DNA of 64,000 nucleotides from Cytophagales bacterium. Its GTDB lineage: Bacteria; Pseudomonadota; Gammaproteobacteria; Burkholderiales; Burkholderiaceae_C. The notes under the pieces are model-generated. The model did no database searches. It was not told the origin of the DNA and was given only the letters and a program-made list of their open reading frames with translations. The position numbers and the translations under genes were made by a program. The stretch lies in contig JASGCK010000011.1 in NCBI GenBank assembly GCA_030054145.1, positions 3,684 to 67,683 on the forward strand, given 5' to 3'. Of this stretch, positions 22,569 to 31,909 are shown in pieces (position 1 is the stretch's first letter; each line of letters begins with the position of its first letter).

Positions 22569-24050
22569 TTAGCGCGGCAAATCGGATGCCCCCATTAAAA
22601 ACTCATCCACCGCGCGTGCAGCTTGGCGACCTTCGCGGATGGCCCACACCACAAGCGATTGCCCACGGCGCATATCGCCAGCGGCAAACACGCCTGCCAC
22701 ATTCGTTTTGTAGCCGCCGTCAAACTCGGTGGATGCTTTCGCATTGCCGCGTGCGTCTTTGTCCACGCCAAAGGCTTCTAAAACGGTAGCCACGGGATTG
22801 ACAAAGCCCATTGCGAGCAGAACGAGGTCGGCTTTGTAGGTTTGCTCAGATCCCGCCACTTCCACCATCTTGCCGTCTTTCATCTCGATACGCACCGTCG
22901 TCAGCTCAGTGACTTGGCCATCTTTGCCACTAAATGACTTGGTTGAAATCGCAAACTCGCGATCCAGCAGCCCCTTTTCTATGCCTTCGTCGTGGCTGGA
23001 GCTAGTGCGTAATTTGAGTGGCCAATACGGCCACGTCATGGGGCGATTTTCTACTTCGGGCGGCTGGGGCATCACTTCAAATTGCGTGACCGATTGTGCG
23101 CCGTGCCGAATGCTCGTGCCCACGCAGTCGCTACCCGTGTCGCCGCCGCCAATCACGATCACGTGTTTGCCATCGGCGCGGAGTTGATCTTTGAGTTTGT
23201 CGCCCGTATTGACCTTGTTTTGCTGCGGCAAAAACTCCATCGCAAAATGAATCCCCGCAAGCTCGCGTCCAGGCACAGGCAGATCACGCGACTGCTCTGC
23301 GCCGCCTGTGAGCAGCACCGCGTCAAAATCTTTTTTGAGTTGCTCGGCGCTGATAGTTTCTTTGGCCCAGTTCGTGACTTTGCTGTCTTTGGGGAAGCTG
23401 CCTATCAAAACACGGGTGCGAATCGTCACGCCCTCAGCCGTCATTTGCTCCACGCGGCGGTCGATGTGCGACTTCTCCATTTTGAAATCAGGAATGCCAT
23501 AACGCAGCAAGCCGCCTACGCGGTCGTTCTTTTCAAACAAAGTGACATCGTGACCAGCACGCGCCAATTGCTGCGCGGCCGCCATGCCCGCAGGGCCTGA
23601 GCCGACAATCGCAATCTTCTTCCCCGTCTTGTGCTTGGCGATTTGCGGCGTAACCCAGCCCTCTTGCCAAGCCTTGTCGATGATGGCGTGTTCAATCGAC
23701 TTGATGCCAACCGCGTCGTCGTTGACGTTGAGCGTGCAAGCCGCCTCGCAAGGCGCAGGACAGATGCGCCCCGTGAACTCAGGGAAGTTGTTCGTGCTGT
23801 GCAACACCGTGATCGCGTTCTTCCAATCGCCTTGGTACACGAGGTCGTTGAAATCAGGAATGATGTTGTTGACAGGGCAACCGTTATTGCAAAACGGCGT
23901 GCCGCAATCCATACAGCGTGCGGCTTGCAGCTTCGATCCCGCCTCGTCGAGGCCGATAACAAACTCTTTGTAATGCTTGAGCCGCTCTGGCACTGGCTTG
24001 TAGCCCTCTTCCAAGCGTTCGATTTCCATGAATCCTGTGATTTTTCCCAT
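22569..24050 (-). CDS. gltD: glutamate synthase small subunit
   Basis: 493 aa with the Fe-S Cys cluster '[14 protein letters not shown]' and the dinucleotide fold '[14 protein letters not shown]'. Confidence 0.95.
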
Positions 24051-24053
24051 GAT

Positions 24054-25169
24054 TTACTCTTCCTTAAATGTCAGTTTTTGATTGCTATAAAAATCTTCAA
24101 TCGCTTGGCGCTCGCGCAAAAGCTCGGTGCGCAACTCCTCTTCGGTTGGCAGTGCCAGCTTGTACTTACTGGCAAACAGTTGCTCGCTGCCGTGCAGCAC
24201 AGAATAACGAACCACCGCCTCGTCCTTGTGCGAACACAAAATAATGCCCAGCGTCGGGTTATCGGTTGCGTCCCGCTTTAGGTCGTCAAACATCCGCACA
24301 TACATATCCATTTGCCCAATGTCTTGGTGCGTGAGCTTGGTGGTCTTCAGTTCAAACAATATGAAGCACTTGAGCACGTAATGGTAGAAAACCAAATCAA
24401 TATAAAAATCTTGCGACTCCGTGCTGATGCGCTGCTGCCTGCCAATAAACGAAAAACCGCGCCCCAGCTCTAGTAAAAAGCTTTGCAGTTTGTCCATTAA
24501 AGCGGCTTCTAGGTTTGATTCCAGCAGCTTGCCCGTCTCAGGCAAACCTAAAAACTCAAGCATTACGGGATCGTGGATAAGGCTGCGGGGTAGCGCCGCC
24601 ATAGCACCTGCACTCGTTTTTTTCAAAGCTTCAGCCCGCACCGCCTGTTTGTCCGCACTAAGCACAAGGCGGTCGTAATACAAGGTGCTAATTTGACGGT
24701 CAAGCGCGCGAACACTCCAGTTTTGCTTAACCGCTTCCGCTAAATACCAAAGCCGCGCAGCTTCACTTTCGACACGTACAAGCGTGCGGTAATGCGACCA
24801 ACTCAATTCGTGACACACTGTGTCACGAATTGGAAAAGCCCTAAAAAATCCACGCATATAACGCAAATTGGATTCATCAAAACCTTTACCAAACTCTTCA
24901 GTTAAAGCTTTTGACAAGATAACAAGTAATTGTTTTCCATACAAAGCACGCGCCTCGCCCGCCTGCTCAAACTCCACAATATGCCGCCCAATTTCCCAGC
25001 AAGTTTGCACCTGCACCATATCCACAGCCCGCAAGGCGCGTTGCCTGCCGACTTGAATAAGCTCCCGCAACGCATCGATGAGCGTGGCGGGGGCTGAGAG
25101 GGTGGTGATGGTGTTGGTCACAGTAGTAAAAATAAATGGTAGTTTTGAATTCGCGACGCAGTGCGTCAC
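24054..25169 (-). CDS. DUF1016/YhcG-family PD-(D/E)XK nuclease-like protein
   Basis: N-terminal helical part 'VQTCWEIGRHIVEFEQAGEARALYGKQLL...GKGFDESNLRYMR' and a C-terminal nuclease-like core 'YIDLVFYHYVLKCFILFELK'. The start is uncertain: GTG 25169 (GTGA overlap with the cupin stop), GTG 25121 or TTG 25274. The stop lies 3 nt before the gltD ATG. Confidence 0.72.
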   Translation of the reverse strand: MTHCVANSKLPFIFTTVTNTITTLSAPATLIDALRELIQVGRQRALRAVDMVQVQTCWEIGRHIVEFEQAGEARALYGKQLLVILSKALTEEFGKGFDESNLRYMRGFFRAFPIRDTVCHELSWSHYRTLVRVESEAARLWYLAEAVKQNWSVRALDRQISTLYYDRLVLSADKQAVRAEALKKTSAGAMAALPRSLIHDPVMLEFLGLPETGKLLESNLEAALMDKLQSFLLELGRGFSFIGRQQRISTESQDFYIDLVFYHYVLKCFILFELKTTKLTHQDIGQMDMYVRMFDDLKRDATDNPTLGIILCSHKDEAVVRYSVLHGSEQLFASKYKLALPTEEELRTELLRERQAIEDFYSNQKLTFKEE

Positions 25170-25486
25170 GAATTGCGTTCTCCGCCTTTGGGTCCCCAAA
25201 ATACCACCCAAGTTACAAAATCCGAGGTGAAATTCAAAAACCGATGCTCCGCACCCGCAGGAACAAACAGGCAATCACCAGTCTGGCATTTTTCTGTAGT
25301 GCCAGCTAGATAGAAGTCGGCCTCTCCTGATTGCACAAAATAAAGTTCGTCTTGATCGTGTGGCTTTTGTGGGTCGCTTAACTTTGGGGCATAAAGTTCC
25401 ACCGACATTGAGCCGTGCGCTATGGCCTTGATAAATCGGACATCTGTAGGCAGATTGTTTAACAAAGGTTTCAAAGAAGCTTTCAT
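25166..25486 (-). CDS. cupin-domain protein
   Basis: ATG 25486 follows an AGGA RBS and gives 106 aa. Cupin motifs 'HDQDELYFVQSGEADF' and 'CLFVPAGAEHRF'. Confidence 0.7.
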   Translation of the reverse strand: MKASLKPLLNNLPTDVRFIKAIAHGSMSVELYAPKLSDPQKPHDQDELYFVQSGEADFYLAGTTEKCQTGDCLFVPAGAEHRFLNFTSDFVTWVVFWGPKGGERNS

Positions 25487-25538
25487 AGCAATTCCTGCCT
25501 TTCGCATCCGTTAATAGAGCCCAACTTGTTTGTCCAAT

Positions 25539-25673
25539 TCAATTGAGATTGTTGCCACAGTTTAGTAGCAAAGCAGCCGTGGCATCCACTTCAGCAGGCA
25601 TAAGCATGGCAAGCACCATACTGTTGTCTAGTATGGCAAGTCCCTGCGGCAGTGTTGAATAAGTTGCCACCAT
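25539..25673 (-). pseudogene. truncated PIN-domain (VapC-like) toxin remnant, 44 codons
   Basis: Not in the ORF track. The ATG shares a TAATG junction with the upstream zinc-finger antitoxin stop. The translation 'MVATYSTLPQGLAILDNSMVLAMLMPAEVDATAALLLNCGNNLN*' aligns with residues about 10-40 of the intact VapC at 26424..26852 ('LVVLDNSAALGLLLPDERGAESTAHLM'). Confidence 0.5.
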
Positions 25674-25999
25674 TACCACTTACGCCCATCGTCTTTAAGT
25701 CTCAAAATCTCAGATCGACTTAAGCGGGCACCGCCCTGCGATTGCAGTGCAGCGAGCGCTTTGATCGATTCAGCAATTTGTGCCTCGCGGTGCGATTCAA
25801 AACCTCCCTCAACGGGAATTGTTTTTTCAGCAGATGACAGAACACGACTCGTAACTTTACTCGTAAAGTAACTCTCCCCGCAGTTCTCGCACACCATTGC
25901 AGGCACATTCTTAAAAGCCACCACGCGGGCATCGCGTGCCAAAGTGAAAGTGGCGTGGGAGGAGCGGGTTTCACCCAGTTTGCAAATGACGCATTTCAT
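25673..25999 (-). CDS. YgiT/MqsA-type zinc-finger antitoxin with a VapB-like C-terminal tail
   Basis: ATG 25999 gives 108 aa. A CxxC...CxxC zinc ribbon ('MKCVICKLGE...MVCENCGESYF') and a C-terminal 45 aa similar to the Phd-type antitoxin at 26852..27121 (shared 'REAQI' and 'S..E......GRK[WY]' end). Confidence 0.62.
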   Translation of the reverse strand: MKCVICKLGETRSSHATFTLARDARVVAFKNVPAMVCENCGESYFTSKVTSRVLSSAEKTIPVEGGFESHREAQIAESIKALAALQSQGGARLSRSEILRLKDDGRKW

Positions 26000-26028
26000 A
26001 AAAGCTTCTTTTTGGTACTGAATATCAT

Positions 26029-26412
26029 CTATTGGCGGCAACTCATATCGCCTTCAACGCATTTTGTTCGTTGCTGCAACTCTTTTGTTCTTTGTATCGT
26101 TCGACCAGTTAAGCACATGACTCTCGCAACAGGGGCAAAACTTCCATCTTGAGGAGAAAAAAACTTGCAGTCCAAGTCTCTAAATTTAATCCATGCCAAT
26201 TGAACTTCTTTGAGTTGCGTTTGTGCAGTCGCGTCAAGGATTGCTTTGTACTCGTTGTAAACACCATTTAGTTGCGAGTTTGCTTTCTTAAGTTCGATAT
26301 CAGCACACTGCTGCATGTCAAGTGTGGTGTTTTGGTTTTTGCAGTTTTGTGCAAACGATGCACTTACCCAGAGCAAGAGAGATACGAGTAGAGAGTATTT
26401 TAAAAATTTCAT
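26029..26412 (-). CDS. LprI-family (DUF1311) secreted protein
   Basis: 127 aa with signal peptide 'MKFLKYSLLVSLLLWVSASFA'. DUF1311 pattern 'T.DM..C...ELKKAN..LN..Y' plus 'LAWIKFRDLDC'. Confidence 0.72.
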   Translation of the reverse strand: MKFLKYSLLVSLLLWVSASFAQNCKNQNTTLDMQQCADIELKKANSQLNGVYNEYKAILDATAQTQLKEVQLAWIKFRDLDCKFFSPQDGSFAPVARVMCLTGRTIQRTKELQQRTKCVEGDMSCRQ

Positions 26413-26423
26413 TGAATGACTCT

Positions 26424-26852
26424 CTAAATGAGTTCAATCGCAGATGCAATCGCCGCCGCTTTAAGTTGCTTATCACTCGTAGCCAGCTTGGCATTCAACC
26501 GAACCGCCAATTCCAAATACGCCGCGTCATAACCCGTCAGGCCTGAGCTTTGAGCCGTGCGCACTAGCACTTCGGGGCTTTGCTCGTCATCTAAAACTCG
26601 GATATCCAGATTTTTTATTTCTGCATACATCCAAGTTAAGTCGTCTTTTTCAATTCGCCCACGGCGTAGCGCCATATTGAGAGCATTGGCAATTTCGTAC
26701 CGCCAAAGCGCGGGGGCAATGAATTGCACGTAGGGCGCTTGCGCCATCAGATGTGCTGTGCTTTCAGCACCGCGCTCGTCGGGCAGCAACAGCCCCAGCG
26801 CCGCACTGTTATCAAGCACAACGAGAGACTTCGAACGTGGCGCAGTTGCCAT
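26424..26852 (-). CDS. vapC: PIN-domain ribonuclease toxin VapC
   Basis: 142 aa with acidic PIN residues in 'VLDNSAAL', 'YEIANAL', 'GYDAAYLELA' and 'LATSDKQL'. TAATG junction with the upstream antitoxin. Confidence 0.85.
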   Translation of the reverse strand: MATAPRSKSLVVLDNSAALGLLLPDERGAESTAHLMAQAPYVQFIAPALWRYEIANALNMALRRGRIEKDDLTWMYAEIKNLDIRVLDDEQSPEVLVRTAQSSGLTGYDAAYLELAVRLNAKLATSDKQLKAAAIASAIELI

Positions 26853-27121
26853 TAGTATTTACGCCCTTCGTTAATCCATTCTTTCCATTCGGCTTGGCTG
26901 ACGCGGGGTGTTTTAGGATCGGCATGACGCGCTTTGATACGCTCAATCGCTGCTCGAATCTGTGCTTCCCGAGGGTCTTCTTGCATGGACTCTAGCGGAG
27001 GTGAAATTCTCGCTACTGGTTTCCCGTGGCTAGTCACAGTGAAACTTTCTCCAGCGGTCGCCCGTTGGATGTAGCTCGAAAAATGCGTCCTTGCTTCGTA
27101 AACGGATAGTCGTGCTTCCAT
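26852..27121 (-). CDS. Phd/YefM-type antitoxin (VapC partner)
   Basis: 89 aa. The N-terminal 'LSVYEARTHFSSYIQRATAGESFTVTSHGKPVARI' is typical of Phd/YefM. The tail is charged. Its stop overlaps the vapC ATG. Confidence 0.8.
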   Translation of the reverse strand: MEARLSVYEARTHFSSYIQRATAGESFTVTSHGKPVARISPPLESMQEDPREAQIRAAIERIKARHADPKTPRVSQAEWKEWINEGRKY

Positions 27122-27132
27122 GATGAAATCCT

Positions 27133-27163
27133 ATTTGACTAGAATTTTTATATTTTAGTCAAA

Positions 27164-27164
<1 letters not shown>
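27133..27164 (-). promoter_or_regulatory. perfect 9-bp inverted repeat, candidate TA operator
   Basis: 'ATTTGACTA'-N14-'TAGTCAAAT' lies 12-43 nt upstream of the antitoxin ATG (27121) in a very AT-rich spacer. Its distal end overlaps the gltB stop codon. Confidence 0.4.

Positions 27165-31909
<4,745 letters not shown>

Follow-up and report, generated by a model that had tools for sequence, protein, structure and literature searches.

In MqsA, the zinc-binding N-domain binds the toxin MqsR and the C-terminal helix-turn-helix (HTH) domain binds DNA (PMC2791442). DUF4258 is catalogued as a toxin of the RelE/ParE superfamily (BECR fold), and its pairing and fusions with MqsA have been recorded (PMC11980606). 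For VapBC toxin-antitoxin (TA) systems, pairs are reported to be highly insulated, and orphan antitoxins have been proposed to act as anti-addiction modules (review, PMC7354431). Relatives of VapB, VapC and MqsA are found together in the window analysed here, a stretch of 64,000 nucleotides from a metagenomic contig of a bacterium labelled Cytophagales (JASGCK010000011.1). They are located between gltB (27164..31909) and gltD (22569..24050), and all features between these two genes are on the minus strand. It is highly probable that the locus consists of one ordinary VapBC module and a decayed second module, the antitoxin tail of which was fused to an orphan zinc-finger gene of the MqsA-N type. 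The features of both modules are as follows, with lengths in amino acids (AA):

27135..27162, minus strand, perfect inverted repeat TTGACTA-N14-TAGTCAA, 13 nt upstream of the vapB ATG
26852..27121, minus strand, vapB, intact antitoxin gene, 89 AA (Pfam PF02604 Phd/YefM, E=2.5e-8; TIGR01552, E=5e-8)
26424..26852, minus strand, vapC, intact PIN toxin gene, 142 AA (Pfam PIN, E=2.6e-6)
25673..25999, minus strand, open reading frame (ORF) for a zinc finger plus tail, 108 AA (YgiT_finger TIGR03831, E=6.6e-11)
25819..25999, minus strand, 5' part of this ORF, YgiT/MqsA-N-type zinc ribbon, residues 1 to ~60 with C3, C6, C37 and C40 (TIGR03831, E=6.6e-11)
25673..25818, minus strand, 3' part of this ORF, last ~47 codons of a Phd/YefM-type vapB', i.e., linker and predicted VapC'-binding tail, ending ...LSRSEILRLKDDGRKW (homology to P0008 and L004, see below)
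25539..25673, minus strand, truncated vapC', a 44-codon ORF (similarity to the PIN N-terminus)

Both modules had been proposed in a first-pass annotation made from the DNA letters alone. Its coordinates and quoted peptides were all correct, and TAATG is read in the sequence at both junctions, where the vapB stop codon overlaps the vapC start and the stop codon of the 108-AA ORF overlaps the ATG of the stub.

The composition of the 108-AA ORF was determined by comparison with two short contigs of close relatives. L001 (JGI 3300080851, 1276 bp) is syntenic and contains, in this order, the 3' end of vapC (87% DNA identity), an ORF of 207 AA, a zinc-finger gene of 73 AA, a palindrome (97%) and gltD (96%). 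The L001 zinc finger is untailed and sits at the position of the 108-AA ORF between gltB and gltD. Both zinc-finger genes share 88% DNA identity up to position ~25818-25821 of the window, after ...SAEKT, where homology ends; past this break, L001 has the family-type C-terminus, while the window reads IPVEGGFESHREAQIAES... instead. A search with the tail as the sole query gave one other protein, P0008. This Phd/YefM antitoxin has 88 AA and matches the query with 76-79% identity over its last 47-50 residues. It is the product of vapB' in L004 (736 bp), in which a cupin gene (81% DNA identity to that of the window), vapB' and the 5' part of vapC' follow each other. Positions 417-664 of L004 match window positions 25809-25561 with 75% DNA identity, spanning tail and stub, and the N-terminus of the L004 PIN gene is 85% identical to the stub over 27 codons. 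Because the zinc finger breaks off with respect to L001 and the tail matches P0008 and L004, the 108-AA ORF is read as a fusion of zinc-finger residues 1 to ~60 with the part of VapB' that starts near residue 39 (P0008 numbering). The parental sequences share at most ~4 nt (AAAC) at the joint. Judged by these alignments, the ORF is a junction chimera, in which one toxin-binding module, an orphan zinc finger, is followed by another, the VapB' tail. No vapB-type operator was found upstream of the 108-AA ORF, and the window contains no cognate toxin of either kind (PIN' or DUF4258) for the chimera.

The normal form of the zinc-finger family was determined from database searches. A word-indexed search of 5.8 billion clusters gave seven relatives of the 108-AA protein. 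Apart from the protein itself, none is of full length; the others have 73-76 AA and align with residues 1 to ~78. When 1.84 billion representatives were scanned exhaustively with HMMER, 522 relatives were obtained, and among the best 150 of these the median length is ~77 AA and none aligns past residue 78. When the 47-AA tail was compared by BLASTP with 158 retrieved proteins (the first two homolog searches plus the best 150 of the representative scan), only the 108-AA protein itself and P0008 were hit. The 90% cluster of the 108-AA protein has one member from one contig, MDI9334843.1, labelled "MqsA family antitoxin". Two candidates for tailed relatives were rejected: L093, for which tblastn appeared to cover query residues 1-103, has an ORF of 77 AA without a tail, and P0011, an 88-AA zinc finger with E=0.026 to a Phd tail, has an unrelated C-terminus on inspection. 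The first-pass annotation had considered a zinc finger with a VapB-type tail to be an undescribed architecture. A new architecture is not supported, as the combination is known from one protein on the contig of one organism, the L001 relative is an untailed protein of 73 AA, and the nearest relative of the tail is a normal Phd/YefM VapB. The chimera looks like the product of a one-off rearrangement and not like a new antitoxin class or architecture.

In 48 related loci, the zinc-finger ORF has 72-80 AA and ends in a conserved strand, GVxVEVRxYAA. The zinc-finger head of the window shares 46-78% identity with the members of 73-76 AA, and the family alignment shows no variation at its cysteines C3, C6, C37 and C40. 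An upstream ORF was detectable in 37 of these loci and is DUF4258-like in 28, overlapping the zinc-finger start with the toxin gene first; among 32 downstream ORFs, none is PIN-like. This is what the first-pass annotation had named as a result that would refute its own proposal. No DUF4258-like sequence is present in the 64-kb window, where the gene upstream of the chimera encodes an LprI-family protein. DUF4258 genes overlapping YgiT zinc fingers of 72-80 AA form a well-populated, toxin-first TA-like family in their own right (L002 100-614, L003 541-1055 and 26 more loci within L078-L120). The short YgiT antitoxins of this family consist of the MqsA-N fold alone, without a DNA-binding domain, and a sequence search of DUF4258 against the PDB matched no solved structure.

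Structures were predicted with AlphaFold2 for a canonical 75-AA member and for the 108-AA protein. The canonical member has a mean predicted local distance difference test (pLDDT) value of 90.5; its model consists of two long strands and a helix, with E67-71 as the last strand. It matches the N-domain of MqsA in Foldseek with a probability of 1.00, template modelling (TM) scores of 0.63-0.72 and a root mean square deviation of 2.2-2.4 Å. Since the zinc domain of MqsA binds the toxin, the MqsA-N fold indicates that the head of the chimera is a toxin-binding module and not a DNA-binding head. The earlier assumption of two DNA-binding heads sharing one tail is thus not supported (PMC2791442). In the 108-AA protein (mean pLDDT 67), the zinc-finger core (residues 11-60) reaches ~80 and is followed by a disordered linker (residues 61-71) and by two helices of low confidence in the tail; the last beta-strand of the family is absent. 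In this model, helices following a disordered linker would be as expected for an antitoxin tail that folds on binding, and the VapB' tail is taken to be intrinsically disordered.

The assignment of the 44-codon ORF to the 5' end of a PIN gene, likewise made in the first-pass annotation, was confirmed. BLASTP against the N-terminus of VapC gave E=6e-5 with 42% identity over 24 residues, and 0 of 5000 shuffles reached the score. When 1224 segments of the window were searched with a PIN profile of 52 family members, vapC (E=1e-53) and the stub (E=0.024) were the only hits. The stub retains positions 4-29 of the 137 profile positions and, with the first catalytic Asp, one of four acidic residues only; therefore, it cannot be an active PIN nuclease, and the second module lacks the complete PIN toxin of a VapBC pair. 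Homology to vapC' of L004 ends near 25561, leaving ~37 homologous codons, and no PIN remnant was found in other frames of the region 25100-25760. In an independent Logan assembly of SRR23378605, a gene is called at the stub, which has no Pfam hit. Among 51 VapC homologs, there is no vapC' ortholog and none exceeds ~45-50% identity to the stub or to vapC' of L004. The overlap of vapC stop and cupin start in the relative L126, together with a "DKQ" peptide read in a different frame, also raised the possibility of an internal deletion, in which the 3' end of vapC' would survive immediately 5' of the cupin gene. This possibility was dropped, as the 66 nt in question show no above-shuffle similarity to any vapC 3' end. 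Only the 15-mer TGCTATGAAAGCTTC is shared across the cupin start.

The ratio of non-synonymous to synonymous substitutions (dN/dS) was calculated for each part of the decayed module. Compared with L001, the zinc-finger part has a ratio of 0.12 (synonymous divergence, dS, 0.49); compared with L004, the tail has 0.11 and the stub 0.07, both at dS>1. Low values are thus found in the tail as well as in the certainly non-functional stub, from which it follows that the divergence arose while both genes were intact. For the same reason, the value of the tail is uninformative about present selection. The truncation would accordingly be recent relative to the divergence between the window and L004, most of which appears to predate it.

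The second module (25539..25999) likewise departs from VapBC on the antitoxin side: the tail is present, but the head is an MqsA-N-type zinc ribbon in place of the DNA-binding N-domain. The module at 26424..27121, in contrast, has both parts. Its PIN toxin, which the first-pass annotation had rightly described as intact, carries all conserved acidic residues (D14, E53, D109 and D127), and a small co-oriented antitoxin gene with a DNA-binding N-domain (Phd/YefM, E=2.5e-8) lies directly 5' of it. In VapB, the Phd/YefM domain occupies residues 5-56 and the C-terminal tail, predicted to bind VapC, ends ...VSQAEWKEWINEGRKY. The VapB ortholog in L124 is 94% identical (dN/dS 0.13), and orthologs of VapC with 84-95% identity are encoded beside gltB in L124, L125, L126 and L001 (dN/dS 0.17-0.20). 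The closest solved relatives of VapB are VapB46 of Mycobacterium tuberculosis and the antitoxin chain of PDB entry 3dbo, which we take to be VapBC-5 of the same species. By domain content and gene arrangement, 26424..27121 is an ordinary VapBC type II TA module, for which toxicity and neutralisation are predicted.

Its mode of action is presumed from the literature on VapBC and FitAB. The Phd/YefM head of VapB would serve DNA binding and dimerisation, and VapB dimers would presumably repress the operon at TTGACTA-N14-TAGTCAA. The inverted repeat at 27135..27162 is the putative promoter/operator of intact vapBC; 5' of vapB', L004 has a corresponding region of 75% identity. The C-terminal tail of VapB would wrap the PIN RNase VapC, and its terminal ...EGRKY motif (Arg/Lys) probably reaches the acidic active site, like the arginines of VapB and FitA tails in solved complexes. 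Loss of VapB would free VapC, a Mg-dependent RNase.

The similarity of both antitoxin tails, noticed in the first-pass annotation, reflects homology. BLASTP of VapB against the 108-AA protein gave E=6e-6 with 32% identity over 71 columns, and the Smith-Waterman score of 46 (shuffle mean 21.5, standard deviation 4.2) was reached by 1 of 5000 shuffles. A profile of 40 distant tails has the two window tails as its two best matches among 1224 segments, with E=0.012 and 0.021. The term "paralogous", which had been used for the two modules, applies loosely in that they belong to the same family; a recent duplication is not seen. A contig scan with VapC as query found no close relative (best 31-53% identity), but 73 loci hold such distant relatives. 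Upstream ORFs were detected in 63 cases, 40 of which, the ones screened, end in the same terminal motif (e.g., ...LSIRELIDEGRRY and ...MSHEEFLEWRDEGRR). The heads bearing this tail are Phd/YefM, UPF0175, heads of ~80 AA without a Pfam match, and 19 proteins of 919-1127 AA. Three of the latter were scanned against Pfam and are Res subunits of type III restriction systems (ResIII in all, RE_endonuc in two). The general idea of one toxin-neutralising tail on different heads was therefore well founded. The tail is a portable VapC-binding module within this VapC sub-family, and the zinc finger is not among its established heads.

The Res proteins with a VapB-type tail (...MSHEEFLEWRDEGRR) form an observation of their own. 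They occur in ~19 gammaproteobacterial loci from metagenome-assembled genomes (MAGs), where a PIN/VapC gene follows, the start of which mostly overlaps the res stop:

L028, 1263-6387, Res-tail locus
L052, 827-6402, Res-tail locus
L012, 3149-6399, Res-tail locus
L023, L032, L034, L038, L039, L041, L044, L048, L049, L053, L054, L056, L057, L073, L074 and L077, further Res-tail loci

A mod methyltransferase gene lies upstream of res in L028 and L052. The arrangement suggests that the restriction enzyme itself may hold a latent RNase toxin, conceptually like PrrC/EcoprrI. No paper on a Res-tail/PIN arrangement was found. If real, this physical link of a restriction enzyme to a latent RNase toxin merits separate study.

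The following course of events would account for the decayed module. A second module, vapB'C', divergent but of the same family as the intact pair, would once have been present, and only its remains are left. A rearrangement would have placed the final ~47 vapB' codons in frame behind codon ~60 of the orphan zinc-finger gene, whose family would normally neutralise the upstream DUF4258 toxin of the RelE/ParE type, and vapC' would have been cut to ~37 homologous codons. Having neither a DNA-binding nor a dimerisation domain, the chimera, if translated, would be at most a free decoy peptide. Most likely, it is a recent, neutral by-product of TA decay, or at most an expressed orphan peptide. For the rearrangement, tandem duplication of cupin-vapB'-vapC' and tandem vapBC-cupin units were considered as options; L004 comprises only 736 bp, and no longer contig with vapB'C' was found. 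Several observations weigh against a neutral origin. The fusion is in frame and lies exactly at the domain boundary, and the tail ORF has neither stop codon nor frameshift and retains its TAATG coupling; a selected fusion would look alike. An in-frame junction has, however, a chance of ~1 in 3, which makes it weak evidence either way. Furthermore, the lineage is thinly sampled by short metagenomic contigs of close relatives, and the singleton status of the chimera may partly reflect this sampling. Finally, the cupin gene precedes vapB' and vapC' in L004 and follows tail and stub in the window.

The first-pass annotation had favoured modular antitoxin evolution, with possible neutralisation of the neighbouring VapC in trans. 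On this reading, a functional antitoxin made of a new DNA-binding head and a VapB tail would have outlived its own toxin and would now protect the cell against the neighbouring or an incoming VapC (anti-addiction). We regard this as unlikely. The tail does keep the family-wide terminal motif (...SxSEIxxLxDDGRKW vs ...SQAEWKEWINEGRKY) and scores among the top two in the tail profile, the ORF is intact and translationally coupled, the tail is found on several other heads, and an anti-addiction role has been proposed for orphan antitoxins (PMC7354431). The head, however, has the toxin-binding MqsA-N fold, a conserved structural strand is lost, no other zinc finger among the best 150 of 522 relatives has the tail and none of 32 downstream ORFs is PIN-like, the closest relative (L001) is untailed, and the low dN/dS carries no weight when that of the dead stub is equally low. 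Neutralisation of the neighbouring VapC in trans would be possible in principle through the shared terminal motif; it is unsupported and a priori unlikely, because tail identity does not exceed 32% and insulation of VapBC pairs has been reported (PMC7354431). It is also rather improbable that the chimera is a newly born, expressed and bispecific orphan antitoxin, with the zinc finger binding DUF4258- or MqsR-like toxins and the tail binding PIN toxins. If true, it would be an anti-addiction or anti-defence decoy against incoming TA elements without autoregulation, and a case of antitoxin domain recombination caught in the act.

A very doubtful alternative is that zinc finger, tail and PIN gene represent the ancestral arrangement, with tail and toxin later deleted in relatives like L001. 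Islands of this kind often undergo deletions, and L001 is short (1276 bp). Nevertheless, the C-terminus of L001 aligns with the terminal strand of the family (REHREYEAEEYA vs SGVQVEVRQYKAA), which is common to all ~50 other members, absent from the window protein and not recreatable by deletion, and the nearest relative of the tail has a Phd/YefM head. It is even harder to credit that the chimera is an artefact of a metagenomic contig joining two strains. The source is a MAG contig and the island is polymorphic among co-occurring relatives, but the Logan assembly of SRR23378605 is 100% identical over 5302 bp including all junctions, which makes an assembler-specific artefact unlikely, and the ~4 nt (AAAC) shared at the junction are far below any assembler k-mer.

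The surroundings of the two modules are variable. From the gltB side, the gene order is vapB, vapC, LprI gene, 108-AA ORF, stub, cupin gene, palindrome and yhcG, with the following features outside the modules:

26029..26412, minus strand, LprI/DUF1311-family secreted protein, 127 AA (Pfam LprI, E=1.5e-22)
25166..25486, minus strand, Cupin_2 gene, 106 AA from MKASL, the ORF extending to 25507 (Pfam Cupin_2, E=7.8e-12)
25147..25175, no strand assigned, palindrome GAATTCGCGACGCAGTGCGTCACGAATTG resembling repetitive extragenic palindromes (REP), 97% identical to L001 1023-1053
24054..25169, minus strand, yhcG, YhcG/DUF1016 PD-(D/E)XK nuclease gene (Pfam YhcG_C, E=7e-56; DUF1016_N, E=1e-42)

While vapBC beside gltB is conserved in relatives (84-95% protein identity in L124, L125 and L126, ~72% in L127), the cargo around it is different in each of L124, L125, L126, L127 and L001. 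The LprI gene is variable island cargo outside the TA modules, its position being held by unrelated genes in L001 (the ORF of 207 AA, lipoprotein-like) and L124 (a membrane protein of 124 AA, the cargo of this relative). In L001, the zinc finger completes the cargo. In L126, a cupin gene directly overlaps the vapC stop and is followed by gltD, and L127 has no cargo after vapC, but DUF433, an unassigned ORF of 110 AA and a GNAT gene before vapB. The cupin gene (76% DNA identity between window and L126) was seen in two relatives, L004 and L126, each time beside a module of the vapBC family, which it adjoins in three ways: 3' of the stub (window 25166..25507), 5' of vapB' (L004 3..230) and over the vapC stop (L126 321..665). 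Additional variable cargo before gltD is yhcG, which is a hit to PDC-S02, one of the candidate defence families of PADLOC (E=3.5e-139), and is not present in L001, L126 and L127; the gap between gltB and gltD thus acts as a mini defence/TA island. PADLOC gave no match for VapB, VapC, the zinc finger, cupin and LprI. The Rfam scan of the window gave no RNA family, and in the promoter and terminator scan nothing exceeded shuffles.

The gltB-gltD intergenic region is therefore a small variable island, which behaves like a small recombination hot spot with the chimera at one of its junctions. The palindrome at 25147..25175 is the right end of the segment in which window and L001 differ, and in L001 (1023-1053) it is found directly 3' of the stop codon of the 73-AA zinc finger. 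This perfect REP-like palindrome (AATTCGYGAC...GTCRCGAATT) has a related copy inside the yhcG coding region (window 24804..24832), and a Y1_Tnp (RAYT-like) gene lies upstream of gltB in L124. REP-like palindromes and RAYT-like elements may drive the rearrangements of the island. NCBI places the source MAG in "Cytophagales bacterium" (MDI9334843-846). To judge by its gene context, with gltBD, aroB upstream and mlaEDA downstream in relatives, and by the REP-like palindromes, the source seems to be proteobacterial; the taxonomy of the bin may be wrong.

The value of the locus is mostly corrective, in that the protein entered at NCBI as "MqsA family antitoxin", and taken for a new architecture in the first-pass annotation, is best explained as a scar left by a fusion during TA decay in the variable island. 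It also offers a clean, datable case of an illegitimate junction attaching a toxin-binding tail to a foreign gene, i.e., raw material for the "mix-and-match" of antitoxins. Compared with E. coli MqsA (YgiT), the chimera has the fold of the zinc-ribbon N-domain with Cys at the same positions 3, 6, 37 and 40. It lacks the HTH-XRE C-domain and hence any known DNA-binding or dimerisation part, and its sequence similarity to E. coli MqsA is marginal (E=0.5), so that the NCBI name is a domain-level call only. It stays below the cut-offs for MqsA proper (TIGR03830, 17 bits vs 61.8; PF15731, 20.8 vs 30), and only positions 1-57 of these models are matched. With the pairs of DUF4258 and short YgiT/MqsA-N zinc fingers, it shares a head of the same family (TIGR03831, Cys4), including the CxxC...CxxC zinc ribbon. 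It differs from them in its length of 108 AA, in the VapB' tail that replaces the terminal strand from residue ~61, and in the absence of an upstream DUF4258 gene.

The VapBC systems with a Phd/YefM-type VapB (e.g., VapB46 and 3dbo) are matched by the intact pair in the Phd/YefM head with toxin-binding tail, the PIN domain with four acidic residues, the stop/start overlap and the upstream inverted repeat, and the remnant 25539..25818 derives from the same family. The second module differs from them, as the VapB head and ~100 of ~140 PIN codons are missing. The tail motif ...LIxEGRR/K[YFW] is a feature of the sub-family, for which no description was found in the literature. With orphan antitoxins and degraded TA loci (PMC7354431), the locus has in common an antitoxin-like ORF without a working cognate toxin beside the debris of a toxin gene; it differs from these in that two unrelated antitoxin families contributed to the ORF, which arose as a chimera at the deletion junction.

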